Positions 34,450 through 57,982 of a DNA stretch of 64,000 nucleotides are shown in pieces. The stretch lies in the IMG/VR virus record IMGVR_UViG_3300045051_000987, positions 1-64,000 of that record, one strand, 5' to 3'. The notes beneath the pieces are model-generated. The model was given only the letters and a program-made list of their open reading frames with translations. It made no database searches and was not told the origin of the DNA. Numbering within the stretch: position 1 is the first letter of the stretch; every line of letters begins with the position of its first letter. This DNA is from a virus. A program made the translations under genes and the position numbers.

Positions 34450-35274
34450 TCATTCCTCGATCGGACGGTACCCCGTGCGTGCGACCTGACCGAGCATCTC
34501 CCGACGCCAATCGAGCGCCGTGGGAAGGTCGTTCTGCATCCCCGTCTTCTCACGTCGCTCGTGGAAGCTCCACGCGAGAGAGTCTGCCGATCGGAAGCTC
34601 GATCCCGCGAGCGCGATCAGCCCGGTCTTCTTGAGGCCGAAGCCGTGGAGGTTCCGCAGCTCGAGATCGTCGAGGCGCATCGTCACGCGGAGGAGCAGAT
34701 CGGTCGACTGACGACGGCACACCGATCCGACGCCGACGACGGGCTCCTTCGAGAGATCGACGCCCGCGCGCGCGTAGAGCTCGGCGCAATCGAGGTAGGA
34801 CGCCGAGAGCCACCCTTGAAGCACCGGCGCGATCGGGAGGTCGGGCGCGATGCTCCGCAGCTCGAGGAAGTTGTCGACCGTGCGCCGCTGGTGCTCCTCG
34901 ACGCTCAGGCCCGTCTTCGCCGTCACGACGGGCTCGCACATCCAGTCCATGGGCGCCGCCCATTCGAGCTGTCCGACCTCGTCTCGAAGGCGCCGCACGT
35001 CGTCGCAGTACTCGCGCGGCGTGCGCGTCCACCGGCCGTGCTTGTTGAGCTCGGTGAAGCCCCCGGAGTCGAGCGCCCACGGGCCCCGAGCGCGCGGGAG
35101 ACGCGCCATCGCACCGAAGGCCTGACGCGCCACGAAGAGCCGGCACGGGGCCTCCGCGAGCCACCCCGGGCGGTGCACGCCGAGATAGAAGCGGAGGGGC
35201 ATGTCGGAACCCGCGTAGACCGGCGCGGGGGCCTTCACGCGGCCCGGGATCAGGCTGAGGTCGAGCTGACGCAT
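34450..35274 (-). CDS. TGT/DpdA-like base-exchange (transglycosylase-fold) protein
   Basis: LDSGGF, MDWMCEP, PVLQG, GVGSVCRR, LHGFG, SADSLAWS. Confidence 0.78.
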   Translation of the reverse strand: MRQLDLSLIPGRVKAPAPVYAGSDMPLRFYLGVHRPGWLAEAPCRLFVARQAFGAMARLPRARGPWALDSGGFTELNKHGRWTRTPREYCDDVRRLRDEVGQLEWAAPMDWMCEPVVTAKTGLSVEEHQRRTVDNFLELRSIAPDLPIAPVLQGWLSASYLDCAELYARAGVDLSKEPVVGVGSVCRRQSTDLLLRVTMRLDDLELRNLHGFGLKKTGLIALAGSSFRSADSLAWSFHERREKTGMQNDLPTALDWRREMLGQVARTGYRPIEE

Positions 35275-36168: not shown

Positions 36169-36207
36169 GGTCTCGTTCTCCTTGGGGCAAGCCCCGCGTC
36201 ACCGTCT

Positions 36208-36255
36208 CGATTGATTTAGGTATACACCCACCATCCCGAACGCGCCAGAAAAAAG
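36208..36255 (-). promoter_or_regulatory. Repeated promoter class E, copy 3
   Basis: Same two conserved blocks, same spacing, different spacer. Confidence 0.75.
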
Positions 36256-36280
36256 ATTCGCCCCGATGTCGATTTCTTCC

Positions 36281-36778
36281 TCAGCCCTTCGGCGCCGGGC
36301 ATTCGCACGGCTTGCCGCGGTCGTTCAGCTCGCAGCACCCCGCGCGTTCCTCGACCACGAGCTCGTCGAGCCCGTACCCGACCGTGCGACCCGCGAGCCG
36401 GGCGAACATCCGCGCGCAGTACTTCGGGAAGCGGCCCGATGACCCGATGATCTCTTCGGCGTCGACCCACGCGCACCGGCGCGATCGAAGCGTGTCGTCG
36501 TGGGTCGCGATCGGACGCTCGCGCCGATCCTCCCATCGCGTCGCGAGGAAGGCCTCGCACGTGTGCGGGCCGGCGCTGTAGACGAGGATCGACGCGGCGC
36601 CGAGAAGCACGATCCCGGTCTCCTCGAAGAGCTCGCGCGACGCACACGCGAGGCTCGAGGCATCGGAGGCCTCACGCCGGCCACCGGGGAGCCCGAGCCC
36701 GTCGGGATGAAGCTCGACGAGCACGAGGTGCTTCGTGGGGTGGAAGAGGAGCACGCACGCTGCATTCGGCTCGGTCAT
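36281..36778 (-). CDS. NUDIX hydrolase
   Basis: LPGGRREASDASSLACASRELFEETGI Nudix box. Confidence 0.88.
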   Translation of the reverse strand: MTEPNAACVLLFHPTKHLVLVELHPDGLGLPGGRREASDASSLACASRELFEETGIVLLGAASILVYSAGPHTCEAFLATRWEDRRERPIATHDDTLRSRRCAWVDAEEIIGSSGRFPKYCARMFARLAGRTVGYGLDELVVEERAGCCELNDRGKPCECPAPKG

Positions 36779-37326
36779 GACGTTCCTTCTCGCACGCGAC
36801 GCGCGCGCACCACAACGAGGGCGAACACGCGCCCGGCTTGATCGCCGGGCATGCGGATCGCGACGACGAGCTCAGGCGCGCGCTCGAGCACGACGAGCTC
36901 GGCGCCGGTGAGCGTGGCCTGGTGTCGCGCGCACGCGAGCGCGTCAGACGCGCCGTGCTCGTCGATCGTCCACTCCCATCCGGGCGTCGTCGCGAAGAGC
37001 ACCTCGCGCGCAGCGCCGTCGACGCCGAGCGACTCGACACGCTCGAGCGGGAGCGTGAGCACCATCGCCGTCGGGAGCTGCGCGCGCTCAGCGAGCGGGG
37101 CTCGCACGCGGCCTCTGATCTTCGACGTGTTCACCCGGGTGAACACGGGGCGCGGCGGACGTCCCTCGAGCGCGCGCAGGCGTCGAATGCACGTCGTCTC
37201 GTGCGGGTGGAAGGCTTGATCCGTCGCTTCCCCGATCGCGCGCGCCGCATCGGCGAAGCGCACGCCTTCAACGCGGATCTTCTTCACGAGGAGCGCGTCG
37301 AGCTCCGCCGTCCATGTCGAGGCCAT
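36775..37326 (-). CDS. Hypothetical protein with possible N-terminal HTH (GcrA/Myb-like)
   Basis: WTAELDALL...EGVRFADAARAIG. Confidence 0.5.
   Translation of the reverse strand: MASTWTAELDALLVKKIRVEGVRFADAARAIGEATDQAFHPHETTCIRRLRALEGRPPRPVFTRVNTSKIRGRVRAPLAERAQLPTAMVLTLPLERVESLGVDGAAREVLFATTPGWEWTIDEHGASDALACARHQATLTGAELVVLERAPELVVAIRMPGDQAGRVFALVVVRARRVREGTS
37128..37145. repeat. 18-bp palindrome copy 6 (intragenic)
   Basis: TGTTCACCCGGGTGAACA. Confidence 0.95.
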
Positions 37327-37651
37327 CGGCCCGATCATGCCGCGACGCGTGCTCACGCATCCGGCGCTTCACCTCGGCCCGACCTCGCTCGACGATGCCC
37401 CGCACGACGTCGGAGATCCCGACGCGCATTGCCGGCGACACGGCCTGGGTGAGGAGCCGGGTCGAGACGCGCTCGAAGATCGCAGCCTCGCGATCGGCGT
37501 CGCACGCGTCGAGGCCCGAGCGCACCTTGATCTGAGCGATCCGCTCGAGCTTGCGCCCGCGCGCGATGAGCAGGTCGACGATCGCATCGTCGATCACGTT
37601 GATCTCGTGCCGCACGAGCTCGAGGTCGGCCGGGATGGGCGTGTCGCTCAC
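37268..37651 (-). CDS. Chorismate mutase type II (AroQ-like)
   Basis: LELVRHEINVIDDAIVDLLIAR...IAQIK...DADRE: R11, R28, K39, D48, R51, E52 spacing of the E. coli enzyme; GTGA overlap with cmoA-like gene. Confidence 0.82.
   Translation of the reverse strand: MSDTPIPADLELVRHEINVIDDAIVDLLIARGRKLERIAQIKVRSGLDACDADREAAIFERVSTRLLTQAVSPAMRVGISDVVRGIVERGRAEVKRRMREHASRHDRADGLDMDGGARRAPREEDPR
37334..37343 (-). promoter_or_regulatory. Class M motif GCGGCATGAT, 7 nt before ATG 37326
   Basis: One of 11 copies. Confidence 0.6.
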
Positions 37652-38379
37652 GACGACCTCACCGCGAGCCACGCGCCGAAGCTCAGGCACCGCCACACGC
37701 ACTCGACGGTCGTGAAGCCGGCGCCGCGGAGGAGATCCTCGTTCCACCGCGCCGTGCACGGCACGAGCACGCCCTCGAGCGATGCGGCCTTGCGGTCGAT
37801 CTCGTCGCGCGAGTAGCCCGCGGCCTCCTTTTCCGCGTGGTAGAGCGCGGTGAGCGCCTCGTCGGCCTCCGCGTCGCTCCCGAGCACCTTCTCGACGACG
37901 ATCAGCGCCCCGCCGGGCATCGTCGCCTTGAACACGTCGCGGAGGATGCGCTGGCGATGGTTGATCGGGAGGAACTGCATCGTGAGCACCGCGAGGGTCA
38001 CGCTCGCGCGCATGCTGAGCGACGGGTAGCCGGCGCGGAGGTCGGTCCCATGCACGAAGACGCGCCGCGTCGCGATCTCGCCTGCGAAGCGCGTGCGGCA
38101 GACCTCGAGCATCGGCTTCGACGTCTCGACGAGCTCGAAGACGTTCCGCAGCTCCGCGCGCGCGATCAGAGGAGCGATCGCGTCACCGCGCGAGGCGCCG
38201 AGGTCGACGATCGAGGAGCCCGGGCGCGCGTAGCGGTCCGCGAGGTTCGTCACGACGTCGCGCATCGCGTCGAGCTGCGGGATCGAGCGTCGGAGCATGT
38301 CCTCGAAGACACTCGCGACGCTCTCATCGAACTCCCATCGCTCGCGCGCGGGAAGGTGCCCAAGGCTCGACTCGCTCAT
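37648..38379 (-). CDS. cmoA: Carboxy-S-adenosyl-L-methionine synthase-like protein
   Basis: WEFDESVASVFEDMLRRSIP, DLGASRG, LTMQFL, PGGALIVVEK, K..AGYS..EI..K match CmoA along the whole length. Confidence 0.85.
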   Translation of the reverse strand: MSESSLGHLPARERWEFDESVASVFEDMLRRSIPQLDAMRDVVTNLADRYARPGSSIVDLGASRGDAIAPLIARAELRNVFELVETSKPMLEVCRTRFAGEIATRRVFVHGTDLRAGYPSLSMRASVTLAVLTMQFLPINHRQRILRDVFKATMPGGALIVVEKVLGSDAEADEALTALYHAEKEAAGYSRDEIDRKAASLEGVLVPCTARWNEDLLRGAGFTTVECVWRCLSFGAWLAVRSS

Positions 38380-39488
38380 GGGGCCGAGGATGCCTCGATC
38401 CAGCCCTCACGCACGAGCCCGAGCGGTGCGAAGACGCGATCGCGCAGCTCGCGCCCGATCGCGAACATCATCGGGGGCGGGACGCTGCGCGCGAGCCGCT
38501 CCCATTGCTGAGCGAACGTCCCCGTGAGCTCGAAGTCGTCGGGGAAGCCGCAGATCCGACGCAGCTCGCGGATCGTGAACTTCCGGCGCTCGAGCGGGTG
38601 CGTGACGCTCGCCGCGGGCTCGCCGCCCTTCACCGTGATGCACGGGCTCGGCTTGTTCACCGGCGCCTTGATCAGGTTGAAGTACTTCTCGGACCACACG
38701 CCGGGCCGGAGCTTGTTCCACTCCGCATCGAGGCTCGGAACCATCGCGCGGCGCGCGGCCTCGAGCTCCTCGATCGTCGGCTCGATCCCGCTCGGCTCAC
38801 CGATGATGTGCGGGATCGCTTCGGCGAGCGTGAACGCGCGCGCGAAGGGCTTGGGGTAGGGCACGTCGCTCGACGTCGCGATCCCGAGCTCGCTCGCGAG
38901 ATCACGGCGCACGCCGACGAGGATCACGCGCCCGCGCTGCTGAGGGACACCGAGCCACTGAGCATCGAGCTCGCGAGCGGCCGCGACGTAGCCAGCCGCC
39001 TCGAGCCGCTTCATCACCGTGTGGAAGTAGCCGAAGGCCTTGCCGCGCACGAAGCCCGACACGTTTTCTGCGATGAACGTCTTCGGCTTCACGCCCTCGA
39101 GCAGGCGGAGCCACTCGAAGAAGAGATCGTCGGTGCGCTGCTTCACGCCCGAGTAGGCCTTCACCTGGCCCCATCCCTTCTCGCGCGCGCCCACCATCGA
39201 GAAGCTCGAGCACGGGGGAGAGCCCTCGAAGACGTCGAGCTCTCCGGCCTTCACGCCCGCGCGCTCGAGCACCTCCTCGGGATGCACCGATCGGATGTCA
39301 CGCGGATCGAGGAAGACGCTCGCCGCGTGGTTCTTCACGTACGTCGCGCGCGCCTCCTCGATGAACTCGTTCGCGAAGACGACGTCGAAGCCGGCCATCT
39401 CGAGGCCGAGGCACGAGCCACCGCACCCTGAGAACGTCGACGCGACTCGCAGCCCCGTGGTGCCCCGTGCGCGCGCGATCGCGGCCAT
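38376..39488 (-). CDS. C5 cytosine DNA methyltransferase-fold enzyme, candidate carboxymethyltransferase (start uncertain)
   Basis: FSGCGG, GSPPC, ENV, Q.R.R, motif IX, and motif X reading LARSVPP instead of GNxVP. Confidence 0.88.
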   Translation of the reverse strand: MAAIARARGTTGLRVASTFSGCGGSCLGLEMAGFDVVFANEFIEEARATYVKNHAASVFLDPRDIRSVHPEEVLERAGVKAGELDVFEGSPPCSSFSMVGAREKGWGQVKAYSGVKQRTDDLFFEWLRLLEGVKPKTFIAENVSGFVRGKAFGYFHTVMKRLEAAGYVAAARELDAQWLGVPQQRGRVILVGVRRDLASELGIATSSDVPYPKPFARAFTLAEAIPHIIGEPSGIEPTIEELEAARRAMVPSLDAEWNKLRPGVWSEKYFNLIKAPVNKPSPCITVKGGEPAASVTHPLERRKFTIRELRRICGFPDDFELTGTFAQQWERLARSVPPPMMFAIGRELRDRVFAPLGLVREGWIEASSAP

Positions 39489-39513
39489 GTCGGGGACGCG
39501 GTAGCTCGTCGGC

Positions 39514-40179
39514 TCAGCTCTTCGTGACGGGGTTCCCGTGCCCGCAGCGCGAGCAGTAGACGATCGCCTTCGAGTTTGCATCGTGCTCCTTGAAATCCCC
39601 CGGGCTCTCGCGCCCGCTCGCACCCGGCCGATCGTCGCGCCCCGTCCCGATGTCCTTGAGCGTCGCGAGCATCGTCGTGACCTGCTCGTCGCTCCATCCG
39701 AGGCCTGCGACGCCGGGCTCGTACTCGCGGTGATCGGCGAGCATCTTCGTGAGGAGCTCCTCGTCGTAGCCCGCCGCGCGCCCGTGCTGGTTGTCCGCGA
39801 GCAGGTAGGCCTCGGCCTCCTCGGGGCCCGACCACGAGAGCCCGCGGATCACCGGCACGAGCCAGTCACCGTCGGGAGCGACGTCGATGCGCGCGGGACG
39901 CACCTTGCCGGTCGATCGGAGTGCGAGGAGCACCTCGATGCGTCCGTGACCCGCCACGACGGTCTGCGTCGTCTCGTCGAGCATCACCGGGAGCGTGTAG
40001 CCGAAGCGGTTCATCGACGCGGTCACGCCGTCGACGTCGTGGCGCTTGGGGTTCCGCGGCGCCTGGTGCTCGACGAGCCACGAGAGGCGCTCGTAGCTGA
40101 TCCGCATGCGCGCGGGCTCGGGGATCGGGGTCTGCGGAGGAGTCGGTGAAGGGGTCTTCTTCGTGCGTGCGTTCGCCAT
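39514..40179 (-). CDS. ParB/Srx N-terminal domain protein with C-terminal CxxC
   Basis: RNPKRH...SMNRFGYTLPVMLD...VVAGHGR...YLLADN; CSRCG. Confidence 0.8.
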   Translation of the reverse strand: MANARTKKTPSPTPPQTPIPEPARMRISYERLSWLVEHQAPRNPKRHDVDGVTASMNRFGYTLPVMLDETTQTVVAGHGRIEVLLALRSTGKVRPARIDVAPDGDWLVPVIRGLSWSGPEEAEAYLLADNQHGRAAGYDEELLTKMLADHREYEPGVAGLGWSDEQVTTMLATLKDIGTGRDDRPGASGRESPGDFKEHDANSKAIVYCSRCGHGNPVTKS

Positions 40180-40224
40180 GTGCTCCCTGCTCGGCGCGAC
40201 CGTAGCAGGGCCAGGGGAGCGACG

Positions 40225-40500
40225 TCAGCCGCTCTCGACGCTCTCGCTCACGACCATCGGGGGCTTCACCTCCGACGTCGGCCACGGTGGACGCACGCGC
40301 CCGCCGTCCTCGAGCATCATCACGCTCTTCACGAGGGTGTTCGGGTCGACGCCGAAGCGCGCGGCCGCGACCTCGAGCAGCGCCTTCGCGATCGACTCCT
40401 CGGAGGAGTCGGCGGGCGTCGCGCAGTACGCGTAGACGATGTGCGCGAGATACTCCTCGGCCGTCACTTCTCGACCACGCTCCTTCTCAGCTTCCGGCAT
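40225..40500 (-). CDS. Hypothetical protein
   Basis: Fills gap; start uncertain. Confidence 0.45.
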   Translation of the reverse strand: MPEAEKERGREVTAEEYLAHIVYAYCATPADSSEESIAKALLEVAAARFGVDPNTLVKSVMMLEDGGRVRPPWPTSEVKPPMVVSESVESG

Positions 40501-56983: not shown

Positions 56984-57982
56984 TCACGGCGTGAAGTCGG
57001 CCTTCGGCGTGCTCGTCTCCGAGATCTCGACCTGCAAGCCTCGCAAGCGCTTCGTGACGCGCGCGGGCGTGCGCGGGTCGAGATCGATGCCCACCCCACG
57101 ACGGCCGAGCACGCACGCCGCCTCGAGCACCGTGCCGGTCCCGACGAACGGATCGAGCACCACGTCGTTCGGCCGCGAGCTCGCGAGGATGCACCGGCGC
57201 GGGAGCTCCACCGGGAACGTCGAGTAGTGGTCGCCCTTGTACCGCCCGCCTCCGAACGACCACACGTCTCGGAGGTTCGCGCCCATCGGCTCGCCGTTCT
57301 CGTCGAGCTTCGCCGCGCGCTTCTTGCCCCACCGCCCGAGCCCGTACGACGCAGCTCGAGGATCGGGAACCGTCGCCGATCGCGCGGGGCCCTGCGCCTG
57401 TAGGCGGAGCGTGTTCGGCCTGAGCGGCTGTCGCACGGCGTTCGCGTCGTAGAAGTAGTGCGCGCGCCGCGAGAAGAGGAACACGTGCTCGTGAGACGAC
57501 GTCGGCCGATCCTGCATCGAGCCCGGCACGGGCGAGGGCTTCGACCAGATCACCTCGCTGCGAAGGATCCACCCGTCGGCTTGGAGCGCGAGCGCGACGC
57601 GCCACGGGATCCCGATCAGGCTCTTGCGCGGCAGACCGCACAGCGTGCTCTTGCTCTCGATGTTCGGAACGAGGTCATGTCGCTCGGGCGTCGAGAGCTT
57701 CGAGCTCTTGCCCGTGCTCCCTCGACGCGAGCCCGAGTAGCTGTCGCCGAGGTTCAACCACATCGTGCCGTCCTTCCGCAGCCCGCGGCGCGCCTCACGG
57801 AACGTGAGCACCATCGCCTCGACGAACGCATCGGGCGTCGGCTCCATCCCGATCTGCCCGTCGAGCCGGTAGTCGCGGAGGTGCCAATAGGGCGGGCTCG
57901 TCACGATCGTCTGCACGTTCTCGACGGTGCCGGCTAGCTCGCGCGCGTCGCCGACGAGGATCCGAAACCGCTCCTCGGTCAT
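56984..57982 (-). CDS. DNA methyltransferase, N4-cytosine/N6-adenine beta class
   Basis: TSPPY, LNLGD, IWSK, H..TFP.EL, DPFVGTGT. Confidence 0.92.
   Translation of the reverse strand: MTEERFRILVGDARELAGTVENVQTIVTSPPYWHLRDYRLDGQIGMEPTPDAFVEAMVLTFREARRGLRKDGTMWLNLGDSYSGSRRGSTGKSSKLSTPERHDLVPNIESKSTLCGLPRKSLIGIPWRVALALQADGWILRSEVIWSKPSPVPGSMQDRPTSSHEHVFLFSRRAHYFYDANAVRQPLRPNTLRLQAQGPARSATVPDPRAASYGLGRWGKKRAAKLDENGEPMGANLRDVWSFGGGRYKGDHYSTFPVELPRRCILASSRPNDVVLDPFVGTGTVLEAACVLGRRGVGIDLDPRTPARVTKRLRGLQVEISETSTPKADFTP

Follow-up and report, generated by a model that had tools for sequence, protein, structure and literature searches.

The conversion of S-adenosylmethionine (SAM) and prephenate to carboxy-SAM is the established reaction of the CmoA family. 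In E. coli the product is consumed by CmoB, which acts on tRNA (cmo5U34). In the Synechococcus phage S-B43 CmoA makes carboxy-SAM, CmoX uses it to carboxymethylate DNA cytosine, and CmoY, an Asn-synthase-like ligase, caps the modified base with glycine (PMC12783734). Natural 5-carboxymethylcytosine (5cxmC) was first reported in that paper, in December 2025, and its authors flagged the availability of prephenate as an open question (Yang et al., PMC12783734). Here we describe a stretch of 64,000 nucleotides, in the following called the window, which represents the first 64 kb of the 113,552-base virus record IMGVR_UViG_3300045051_000987 from IMG/VR. On its minus strand, downstream of the terminase gene, lies a module in which a ParB-like gene is followed by genes for a CmoX-type transferase, a CmoA-like protein and an AroQ-class chorismate mutase (CM). 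These genes probably constitute a phage operon by which cytosines in DNA are carboxymethylated after replication, and which carries its own supply of a co-substrate.

The window shares with S-B43 a CmoA gene adjoining a C5-methylase homologue which carries both an SPPC motif and the Arg typical of CmoX. The absence of CmoB is likewise shared, and so is a ParBc-type neighbour, as seen in 1660 contigs of that study; ParBc proteins adjoin 1660 CmoX genes there, and their role was not known (Yang et al., PMC12783734). In contrast to S-B43, the window lacks a CmoY/Asn-synthase-type ligase and has a coupled CM, whereas none is annotated in the ~10.6-kb stretch around the cmoA of S-B43. The window CmoA is moreover ~22% identical to SpCmoA and belongs instead to the clade of Erwinia phage Y3 and Pseudomonas phage PaBG. 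Compared with E. coli the assumed reaction of CmoA, a prephenate-dependent carboxylation of SAM, is the same, but the consumer is a predicted DNA transferase in place of CmoB. A basic residue at the Asn position of motif X, a feature of the window CmoX, converts C5-methylases to users of carboxy-SAM in the engineered carboxymethylating enzymes (M.MpeI N374K; M.MedI). These were either made in the laboratory or come from a bacterium, and depend on host CmoA, whereas the phage described here encodes the supply from chorismate on.

A pathway of this kind had been proposed in an initial annotation of the window, which also mentioned a recent report on a phage CmoA paired with a C5 transferase. That report could be identified as Yang et al., Nat Commun 2025 (PMC12783734), published in December 2025. 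The initial annotation placed the novelty in the chorismate mutase, and this assessment stands: the CmoA/CmoX pair is already published, while the mutase as an add-on was not found in the literature. The word 'chorismate' has zero occurrences in PMC12783734 and its available supplements, and no paper joining 'chorismate mutase', CmoA and phage was found in the literature searched.

The CmoX-type transferase

Motif I, PC, ENV and QxRxR, which mark the catalytic domain of C5-methyltransferases, are all present in the transferase. In the numbering of the longest open reading frame (415 residues) FSGCGG is found at 64, SPPC at 135-138, ENV at 186 and QRGR at 229. The likeliest start is the ATG at 39488, 26 nucleotides past the ParB stop, which yields 370 residues as compared to 372 in SpCmoX; the alternative GTG start at 39623 would overlap the ParB gene by 110 nucleotides. 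The best match among solved structures is SpCmoX (8yf3_A, E 1.8e-59), and the next structure, M.HaeIII, follows with 1.4e-20.

CmoX candidates were defined by SPPC (S95-C98 of SpCmoX) together with Arg350, which replaces Asn304 of M.HhaI and contacts the carboxyl of carboxy-SAM (PMC12783734). Both hallmarks are present in the window. GSPPCSSFS of the transferase aligns with GSPPCSAFS of 8yf3, and Arg379 (Arg334 in the 370-residue form), located in ERLARSVPP, aligns with R350 of SpCmoX (ERVGRMVPP). The same column is occupied by Asn in M.HaeIII (IGNAVP); this replacement of the usual Asn by Arg is what lies behind the term 'altered' that had been applied to the transferase initially. The Arg is conserved in close relatives, and wherever a CM-bearing locus comprises the transferase gene, its product has SPPC plus Arg (7/7). 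Judged by its sequence the transferase is of the CmoX type, and it is predicted to transfer a carboxymethyl group from carboxy-SAM to DNA cytosine.

An internal control is provided by a second C5-methylase in the window. This protein of 590 residues has a long insert and contains SPPC, but keeps the canonical Asn (RIGNAVP), so that of the two C5-methylases only the CmoA-adjacent one carries Arg. Because the Asn-type enzyme has SPPC too, this motif alone does not discriminate between the two types.

The transferase might also be regarded as an ordinary SAM-dependent 5-methylcytosine methylase, with CmoA serving something else, as it belongs to PF00145 and exhibits all canonical catalytic motifs. 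We assign next to no probability to this view. The position occupied by Arg decides on the cofactor; wild-type SpCmoX takes carboxy-SAM only, and its R350N variant is inactive (PMC12783734). The other C5-methylase of the genome keeps Asn, and no CmoB or other known user of carboxy-SAM is present in the genome. The lack of a CmoB-like gene, first noticed in the neighbourhood of the module, indeed extends over all 113,552 bases, in which the CmoB family gave no match. PF00733, which would indicate a CmoY/Asn-synthase-type ligase, was also without a match in the whole genome at E<=0.1, and no tRNA genes were found in the 64-kb window. Therefore, CmoX is the sole visible consumer of carboxy-SAM, and in view of the missing CmoY-type ligase neither an amide nor a glycine cap is expected.

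A near-identical variant of this phage carries an intein of 242 residues in its CmoX, inserted between ...VKAY and SGVKQRT.... The protein (P0165) has 612 residues, is encoded on a 111,684-base contig, and its flanks are identical to the CmoX of the window. The first residue of the insert is Cys and its last two are His-Asn, with Ser as the next residue; it contains a LAGLIDADG motif (PF14528, E 4e-5), and the match to Intein_splicing is weak. At the DNA level the contig X2 has 733 letters in place of 7 at this site, a net gain of 726. The allele in the window is without the intein. The closest CmoX relatives (P0166, P0167 and P0169, 65-68% identity) are 538-596 residues long and have an N-terminal extension as well as an insert of ~100 residues in the variable, target-recognition region. 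Repeats of the kind 'DEPA.T...GMGG' occur in both extension and insert, and also in the second methylase of the window.

The CmoA-like protein

CmoA is by far the best family for the protein of 243 residues encoded next to the transferase, and TIGR00740 aligns with residues 13-240. The protein also matches phrog_4752 (E 5e-63). Its alignment with 4gek, a structure of CmoA from E. coli, runs from end to end (E 5.5e-32), and the SAM-binding motifs of both agree. An identity of 43% is seen with the CmoA proteins of the jumbo phages Y3 (Erwinia) and PaBG (Pseudomonas), the latter of which has the same ParB-CmoX-CmoA order, and the window protein is located within a phage clade of 1,948 proteins (E<=1e-20). 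We suppose that it makes carboxy-SAM from SAM and prephenate, as established for its family.

The chorismate mutase

The protein encoded behind CmoA passes the Pfam cut-off for PF01817, with a match that spans profile positions 1-56/60 of 80 only. An AlphaFold2 model (predicted local distance difference test 89.8) consists of three helices comprising residues 8-45, 52-68 and 73-108. Its top Foldseek matches are AroQ chorismate mutases, namely 1ecm_B with a template modelling (TM) score of 0.89 and a root-mean-square deviation of 1.6 A, and 5vht with a TM score of 0.88; the corresponding E-values of only about 0.02 are what is normally obtained for helical proteins this short. The three-helix fold would be common to the window CM, the E. 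coli enzyme (EcCM, 1ECM) and the intracellular AroQ delta enzyme of M. tuberculosis (MtCM; 2VKL, 2W1A).

When 1.84 billion representative proteins were searched exhaustively with HMMER, only 11 other clusters appeared at E<=2.5e-10, which together with the window protein make a family of 12 sequences. Beyond these, ordinary chorismate mutases were found with E-values of about 1e-6 to 1e-3. All 12 members of the family share Arg14, Arg31/Arg33, Lys42, Asp51, Arg54 and Glu55. These residues correspond to Arg11', Arg28, Lys39, Asp48, Arg51 and Glu52 of EcCM, so that six of the eight catalytic residues are kept. Based on these residues and on the modelled fold the 127-residue protein is filed as an AroQ mutase, which does not imply catalytic efficiency. 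This family emerged only in the exhaustive search: a word-index search with CM returned the self match only, and nothing was found in IMG/VR by single-protein scans with CM and with CmoA or by a scan with the CM-family alignment.

Operon structure

The stop of CmoX and the start of CmoA share the four bases ATGA (38376-38379), and the stop of CmoA and the GTG start of CM share GTGA (37648-37651), with GGTGAGG just upstream. These 4-bp overlaps imply co-translation. The four genes are found on the minus strand at the positions given in the initial annotation, and both overlaps are as described there. An independent contig of 8,035 bases, which originates from a different study, matches positions 36200-40300 of the window with 23 differences. 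An error of assembly as the source of this gene order is therefore excluded.

Co-occurrence of CM with CmoA and CmoX

A scan of IMG/VR and of JGI metagenomes with a CmoA alignment yielded the 160 loci examined here, out of a whole CmoA set of 393 IMG/VR and more than 542 metagenome loci. Of the 160 loci 142 are non-redundant, and 118 of these are informative, having at least 350 bases downstream of CmoA. The initial annotation had named a lack of co-occurrence in related phages as a ground for giving up the pathway. Such a lack was not seen, as CM_2 genes lie inside the CmoA/CmoX clusters of nine other non-redundant loci (9/118 of the informative ones).

Among 80 whole IMG/VR contigs with CmoA five contain a CM_2 match above the Pfam cut-off, and in each case (5/5) it is located within the CmoA/CmoX cluster; four of these five contigs are 30-56 kb long. 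A broader hidden Markov model found the same five and in addition four metagenome loci. The order CmoA-then-CM is seen in six loci besides the window, and a CM-like match ~800 bases downstream of CmoA in L097 represents a seventh. Two other arrangements exist, namely ParB, CM, CmoX (L045) and CM, CmoX, CmoA (L030). The closest relative of the window, L088 (72% CmoA identity), shows the same layout of CmoA, CM and next gene. On the CmoA tree the window, L088 and L034 form a clade with 99% support, all members of which are CM-positive, and mapping of CM presence requires at least two changes (gains or losses), most simply seven. Further clusters of CM, CmoA and CmoX proteins could be paired on contigs of roughly 90-107 kb by identical contig nucleotide counts only. 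The counts shared are 99,346 (P0171, P0019, P0129), 90,861 (P0008, P0127) and 107,907 (P0169, P0004), and also 17,271 (P0167, P0159) and 3,824 (P0013, P0126).

This distribution bears on two other explanations of the CM. It could be an unrelated auxiliary metabolic gene, e.g. for the supply of Phe or Tyr, which came to lie beside CmoA by chance; many metabolic genes are known from phages, and a small PHROG of CM-like proteins without a function, phrog_10027, exists. This appears very improbable, as all Pfam-level matches in the whole contigs are confined to the CmoA/CmoX cluster and adjacency is kept in three different orders. Furthermore, no CM is present anywhere in the whole records of the four cultured phages with CmoA (PaBG, Y3, Afa-NA1 and TurkishDelight), and a tblastn search of 50,697 phage records with CM found nothing.

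The second explanation is that CM and CmoA mainly drain chorismate and SAM of the host, directed against SAM-dependent defences or aromatic and siderophore pathways, and that DNA carboxymethylation is secondary. One SAM and one prephenate are destroyed per CmoA turnover, and SAM depletion by CmoA was raised as a possibility in PMC12783734. However, CM always adjoins a CmoX with the Arg hallmark, translation of CM and CmoA is coupled to that of the transferase, and SAM would be depleted more cheaply by a simple SAM lyase. We consider such a drain as the main function to be quite improbable, with the remark that host drain and a role in DNA modification are not mutually exclusive. CM most likely supplies prephenate for the carboxymethylation pathway.

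Evidence against the pathway, and a possible partner dependence of CM

Several observations weigh against a pathway from chorismate to modified DNA. About 92% of the informative CmoA loci are without CM, including six contigs which are at least 90% complete. Since most CmoA loci have none, CM must be dispensable and is accessory, not core. Neither the large terminase, which shares no more than 24% identity with its counterpart in any cultured phage, nor the window, which contains no tRNA, points to a host and thus to the size of its prephenate pool. The CmoA-like protein stays below the NCBIfam cut-offs (144.1 versus 193.3 bits for TIGR00740 and 117 versus 285 for NF011995) and is classed as a divergent member, not as an equivalog by the NCBI rule. 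Its Ala198 (codon 37786-37788) aligns with Arg199 of E. coli CmoA, the residue that binds the carboxylate of carboxy-SAM through a salt bridge. Finally, helix 3 of CM lacks the equivalents of Ser84 and Gln88 (the latter being Glu in some subclasses) and has Gly90-Arg91 and Val94 there, and the Gln88-less CM of M. tuberculosis works poorly without its partner protein (PMC7762937).

The Ala of CmoA is not disqualifying, because SpCmoA, which was found experimentally to be 'highly active', has Glu in the same ungapped column. The closest CmoA relatives (64-73% identity) have Ala as well, and most of those at 60% identity or less keep Arg. Ala at this position is associated with the presence of CM (5/9 versus 3/121, Fisher p 2e-5). 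We dropped this association as a functional tie, as it comprises two phylogenetically independent pairs only, too few for the sign test to be informative, and shared ancestry explains it equally well.

In the CM proteins from the other phage clusters the first of the two helix 3 sites is Cys, Gly or Ser, or Leu in the case of L037; the next residue is Arg or Lys, and the second site is V, I, W, E or P. MtCM, which resembles the window CM in a Gly-Arg pair (Gly84-Arg85) close to where helix 3 ends and in the absent Gln88 equivalent, tolerates only Gly, Ser and Cys before its Arg85 and is a genuine, but partner-activated mutase (PMC7762937). The CM-like protein may for this reason not be an efficient free-standing mutase; it could be activated by docking to CmoA, channel prephenate to CmoA, or act on a related substrate such as isochorismate. 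The need of MtCM for DAHP synthase to reach full activity would fit this explanation, and so would the translational coupling to CmoA and a family-specific conserved C-terminal tail (RHD..DG..D). Isochorismate-pyruvate lyases, which have the CM fold, appear among the structural matches as well. We nevertheless regard it as unlikely. The window CM retains the canonical Lys39 equivalent, whereas MtCM has Arg46 at this position, and directed evolution has shown that a Gln88-less AroQ can be fully active (PMC7762937). The tail of ~25 residues, which is absent in EcCM and MtCM, may owe its conservation to the overlapping frame of the next gene in the window and in L088.

The tail motif was considered as a docking motif and dropped, since in the window and in L088 the following gene begins within it, with a start that is itself conserved (MIG.MA..TWT.ELDALL). 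Because of this overlap the conservation is not assignable to CM.

There is a small chance that a partner-dependent CM docks on the Arg199-less CmoA. The two would then form a channel from chorismate to carboxy-SAM in which the labile prephenate is kept from PheA and TyrA of the host, and the product of the gene at 36775-37338 could be a third part of it. A complex prediction with two copies each of CmoA and CM gave a score of 0.20 with a mark of 0.32, which counts neither for nor against such a complex.

Proposed pathway and its cost

In the pathway that we favour, the AroQ-class CM would convert host chorismate to prephenate, and CmoA would turn prephenate and SAM into carboxy-SAM, phenylpyruvate and water. 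The Arg in motif X of CmoX would grip the carboxyl group, and the carboxymethyl group would be transferred to C5 of cytosines in the phage DNA, giving 5cxmC. Without a CmoY-type ligase the modified base would probably remain a free acid. The likely benefit would be protection from host nucleases, including a putative role against restriction.

Each modified base would cost one prephenate. The genome contains 77,599 cytosines and 14,163 GC dinucleotides. If the enzyme had a GC specificity like that of SpCmoX, ~28,000 cytosines per genome would be targets, and the demand of a burst of 100 virions would run into millions of prephenate molecules. With one prephenate per base and that many targets, a mutase set aside for the pathway would ease a shortage that follows from its stoichiometry.

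A phage CM coupled to CmoA would indicate that at least some hosts provide too little prephenate for carboxymethylation of the whole genome, and the phage-encoded route would reach back to chorismate, a central metabolite. The three enzymes could be viewed as a cassette leading from chorismate and SAM over carboxy-SAM to 5cxmC-DNA, which could help to make carboxy-SAM or carboxymethylated DNA in hosts without CmoA or with a small prephenate pool. It would be a rare instance of a shikimate-pathway enzyme recruited to nucleic-acid modification, here phage-encoded within a DNA-modification operon in contrast to EcCM and MtCM, and would define a new Gln88-less AroQ subfamily. The advance is incremental and not categorical, as the chemistry at its centre had already been described and a mutase is the addition that one would expect.

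Neighbouring genes and genome

The genes of the module and the other features mentioned in the text are listed in Table 1.

Table 1. Positions of the module genes and of further features in the window, with their best family matches.
Feature	Position	Strand	Match
ParB-like (ParBc-type) protein, first module gene	39514-40179	-	phrog_620 'ParB-like partition protein', E 3e-25
CmoX-type DNA cytosine-C5 carboxymethyltransferase (predicted)	38376-39488 (longest open reading frame to GTG 39623)	-	PF00145, E 7.6e-49
Intein site in CmoX	39147-39153		
CmoA-like carboxy-SAM synthase (putative), 243 residues	37648-38379	-	TIGR00740, E 5.3e-42
AroQ-class chorismate mutase (putative), 127 residues, GTG start	37268-37651	-	PF01817, 37.9 bits (39.1 in genome search; cut-off 27)
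Conserved protein, 183-187 residues	36775-37338	-	none in Pfam and PHROG
NUDIX hydrolase	36281-36778	-	PF00293, E 2.3e-10
DpdA-family DNA transglycosylase	34450-35274	-	PF23859, E 1.6e-63
N6/N4 methylase	56984-57982	-	PF01555, E 2e-40
Second C5-methylase, 590 residues	59297-61069	-	

The ParB-like protein, for which Pfam gave no match at E<0.01, has homologues upstream of CmoX in L007, L034, L045, L133 and in phage PaBG. The start of the gene behind CM (ATG 37338 or 37326) is located inside the last ~20-24 codons of CM, an overlap of 59 or 71 nucleotides, and a 46%-identical homologue occupies the same overlapping place after CM in L088. From this conserved position the protein may belong to the pathway. 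It matched no Pfam family even at E<=10 and no PHROG, and its matches in a protein atlas reach at most 0.81, which is chance level. Its N-terminus (TWTAELDALL...AARAIG) resembles a helix-turn-helix of the GcrA/Myb type, the sole support for which is an atlas match of 0.79, again at chance level.

The link of the NUDIX gene to the module is uncertain, and no sequence homologue of it was found in the 160 related loci. In Alcaligenes phage Afa-NA1 (L001, 5950-7195) a NUDIX gene also follows directly after CmoA, and no adjacent gene is annotated there as a cytosine methylase. At the genome end of Streptomyces phage TurkishDelight (L004, 1668-6696) two ParB genes are followed by genes for a methyltransferase, a glutamine-amidotransferase-domain protein and a CmoA-like protein. 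Both records annotate these genes only generically.

The complete record, which represents a soil phage, has 68% G+C and a CheckV completeness of 100%. Nearly all of its genes are on the minus strand, and it codes for tail sheath, tape-measure protein, portal and large terminase. A blastn search with the region described here gave no match in the 50,697 phage records. Near-identical DNA is contained in rhizosphere metagenome runs of several studies, and no RNA data set is listed as containing the stretch.

CCWGG, the Dcm/EcoRII site, is depleted in the window, with 38 sites versus 94.6 +/- 11.4 expected from dinucleotide-preserving shuffles; the count was 38 or higher in 100/100 shuffles. The DpdA-family gene, located 1 kb past the NUDIX gene, suggests that the DNA is modified in a second way as well, with a base of the 7-deazaguanine type. 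As QueC is absent from the genome, the precursor of a 7-deazaguanine base would need a host source. Altogether four DNA-modifying enzymes, DpdA, CmoX and two further methyltransferases, are encoded within about 27 kb (34450-61069).

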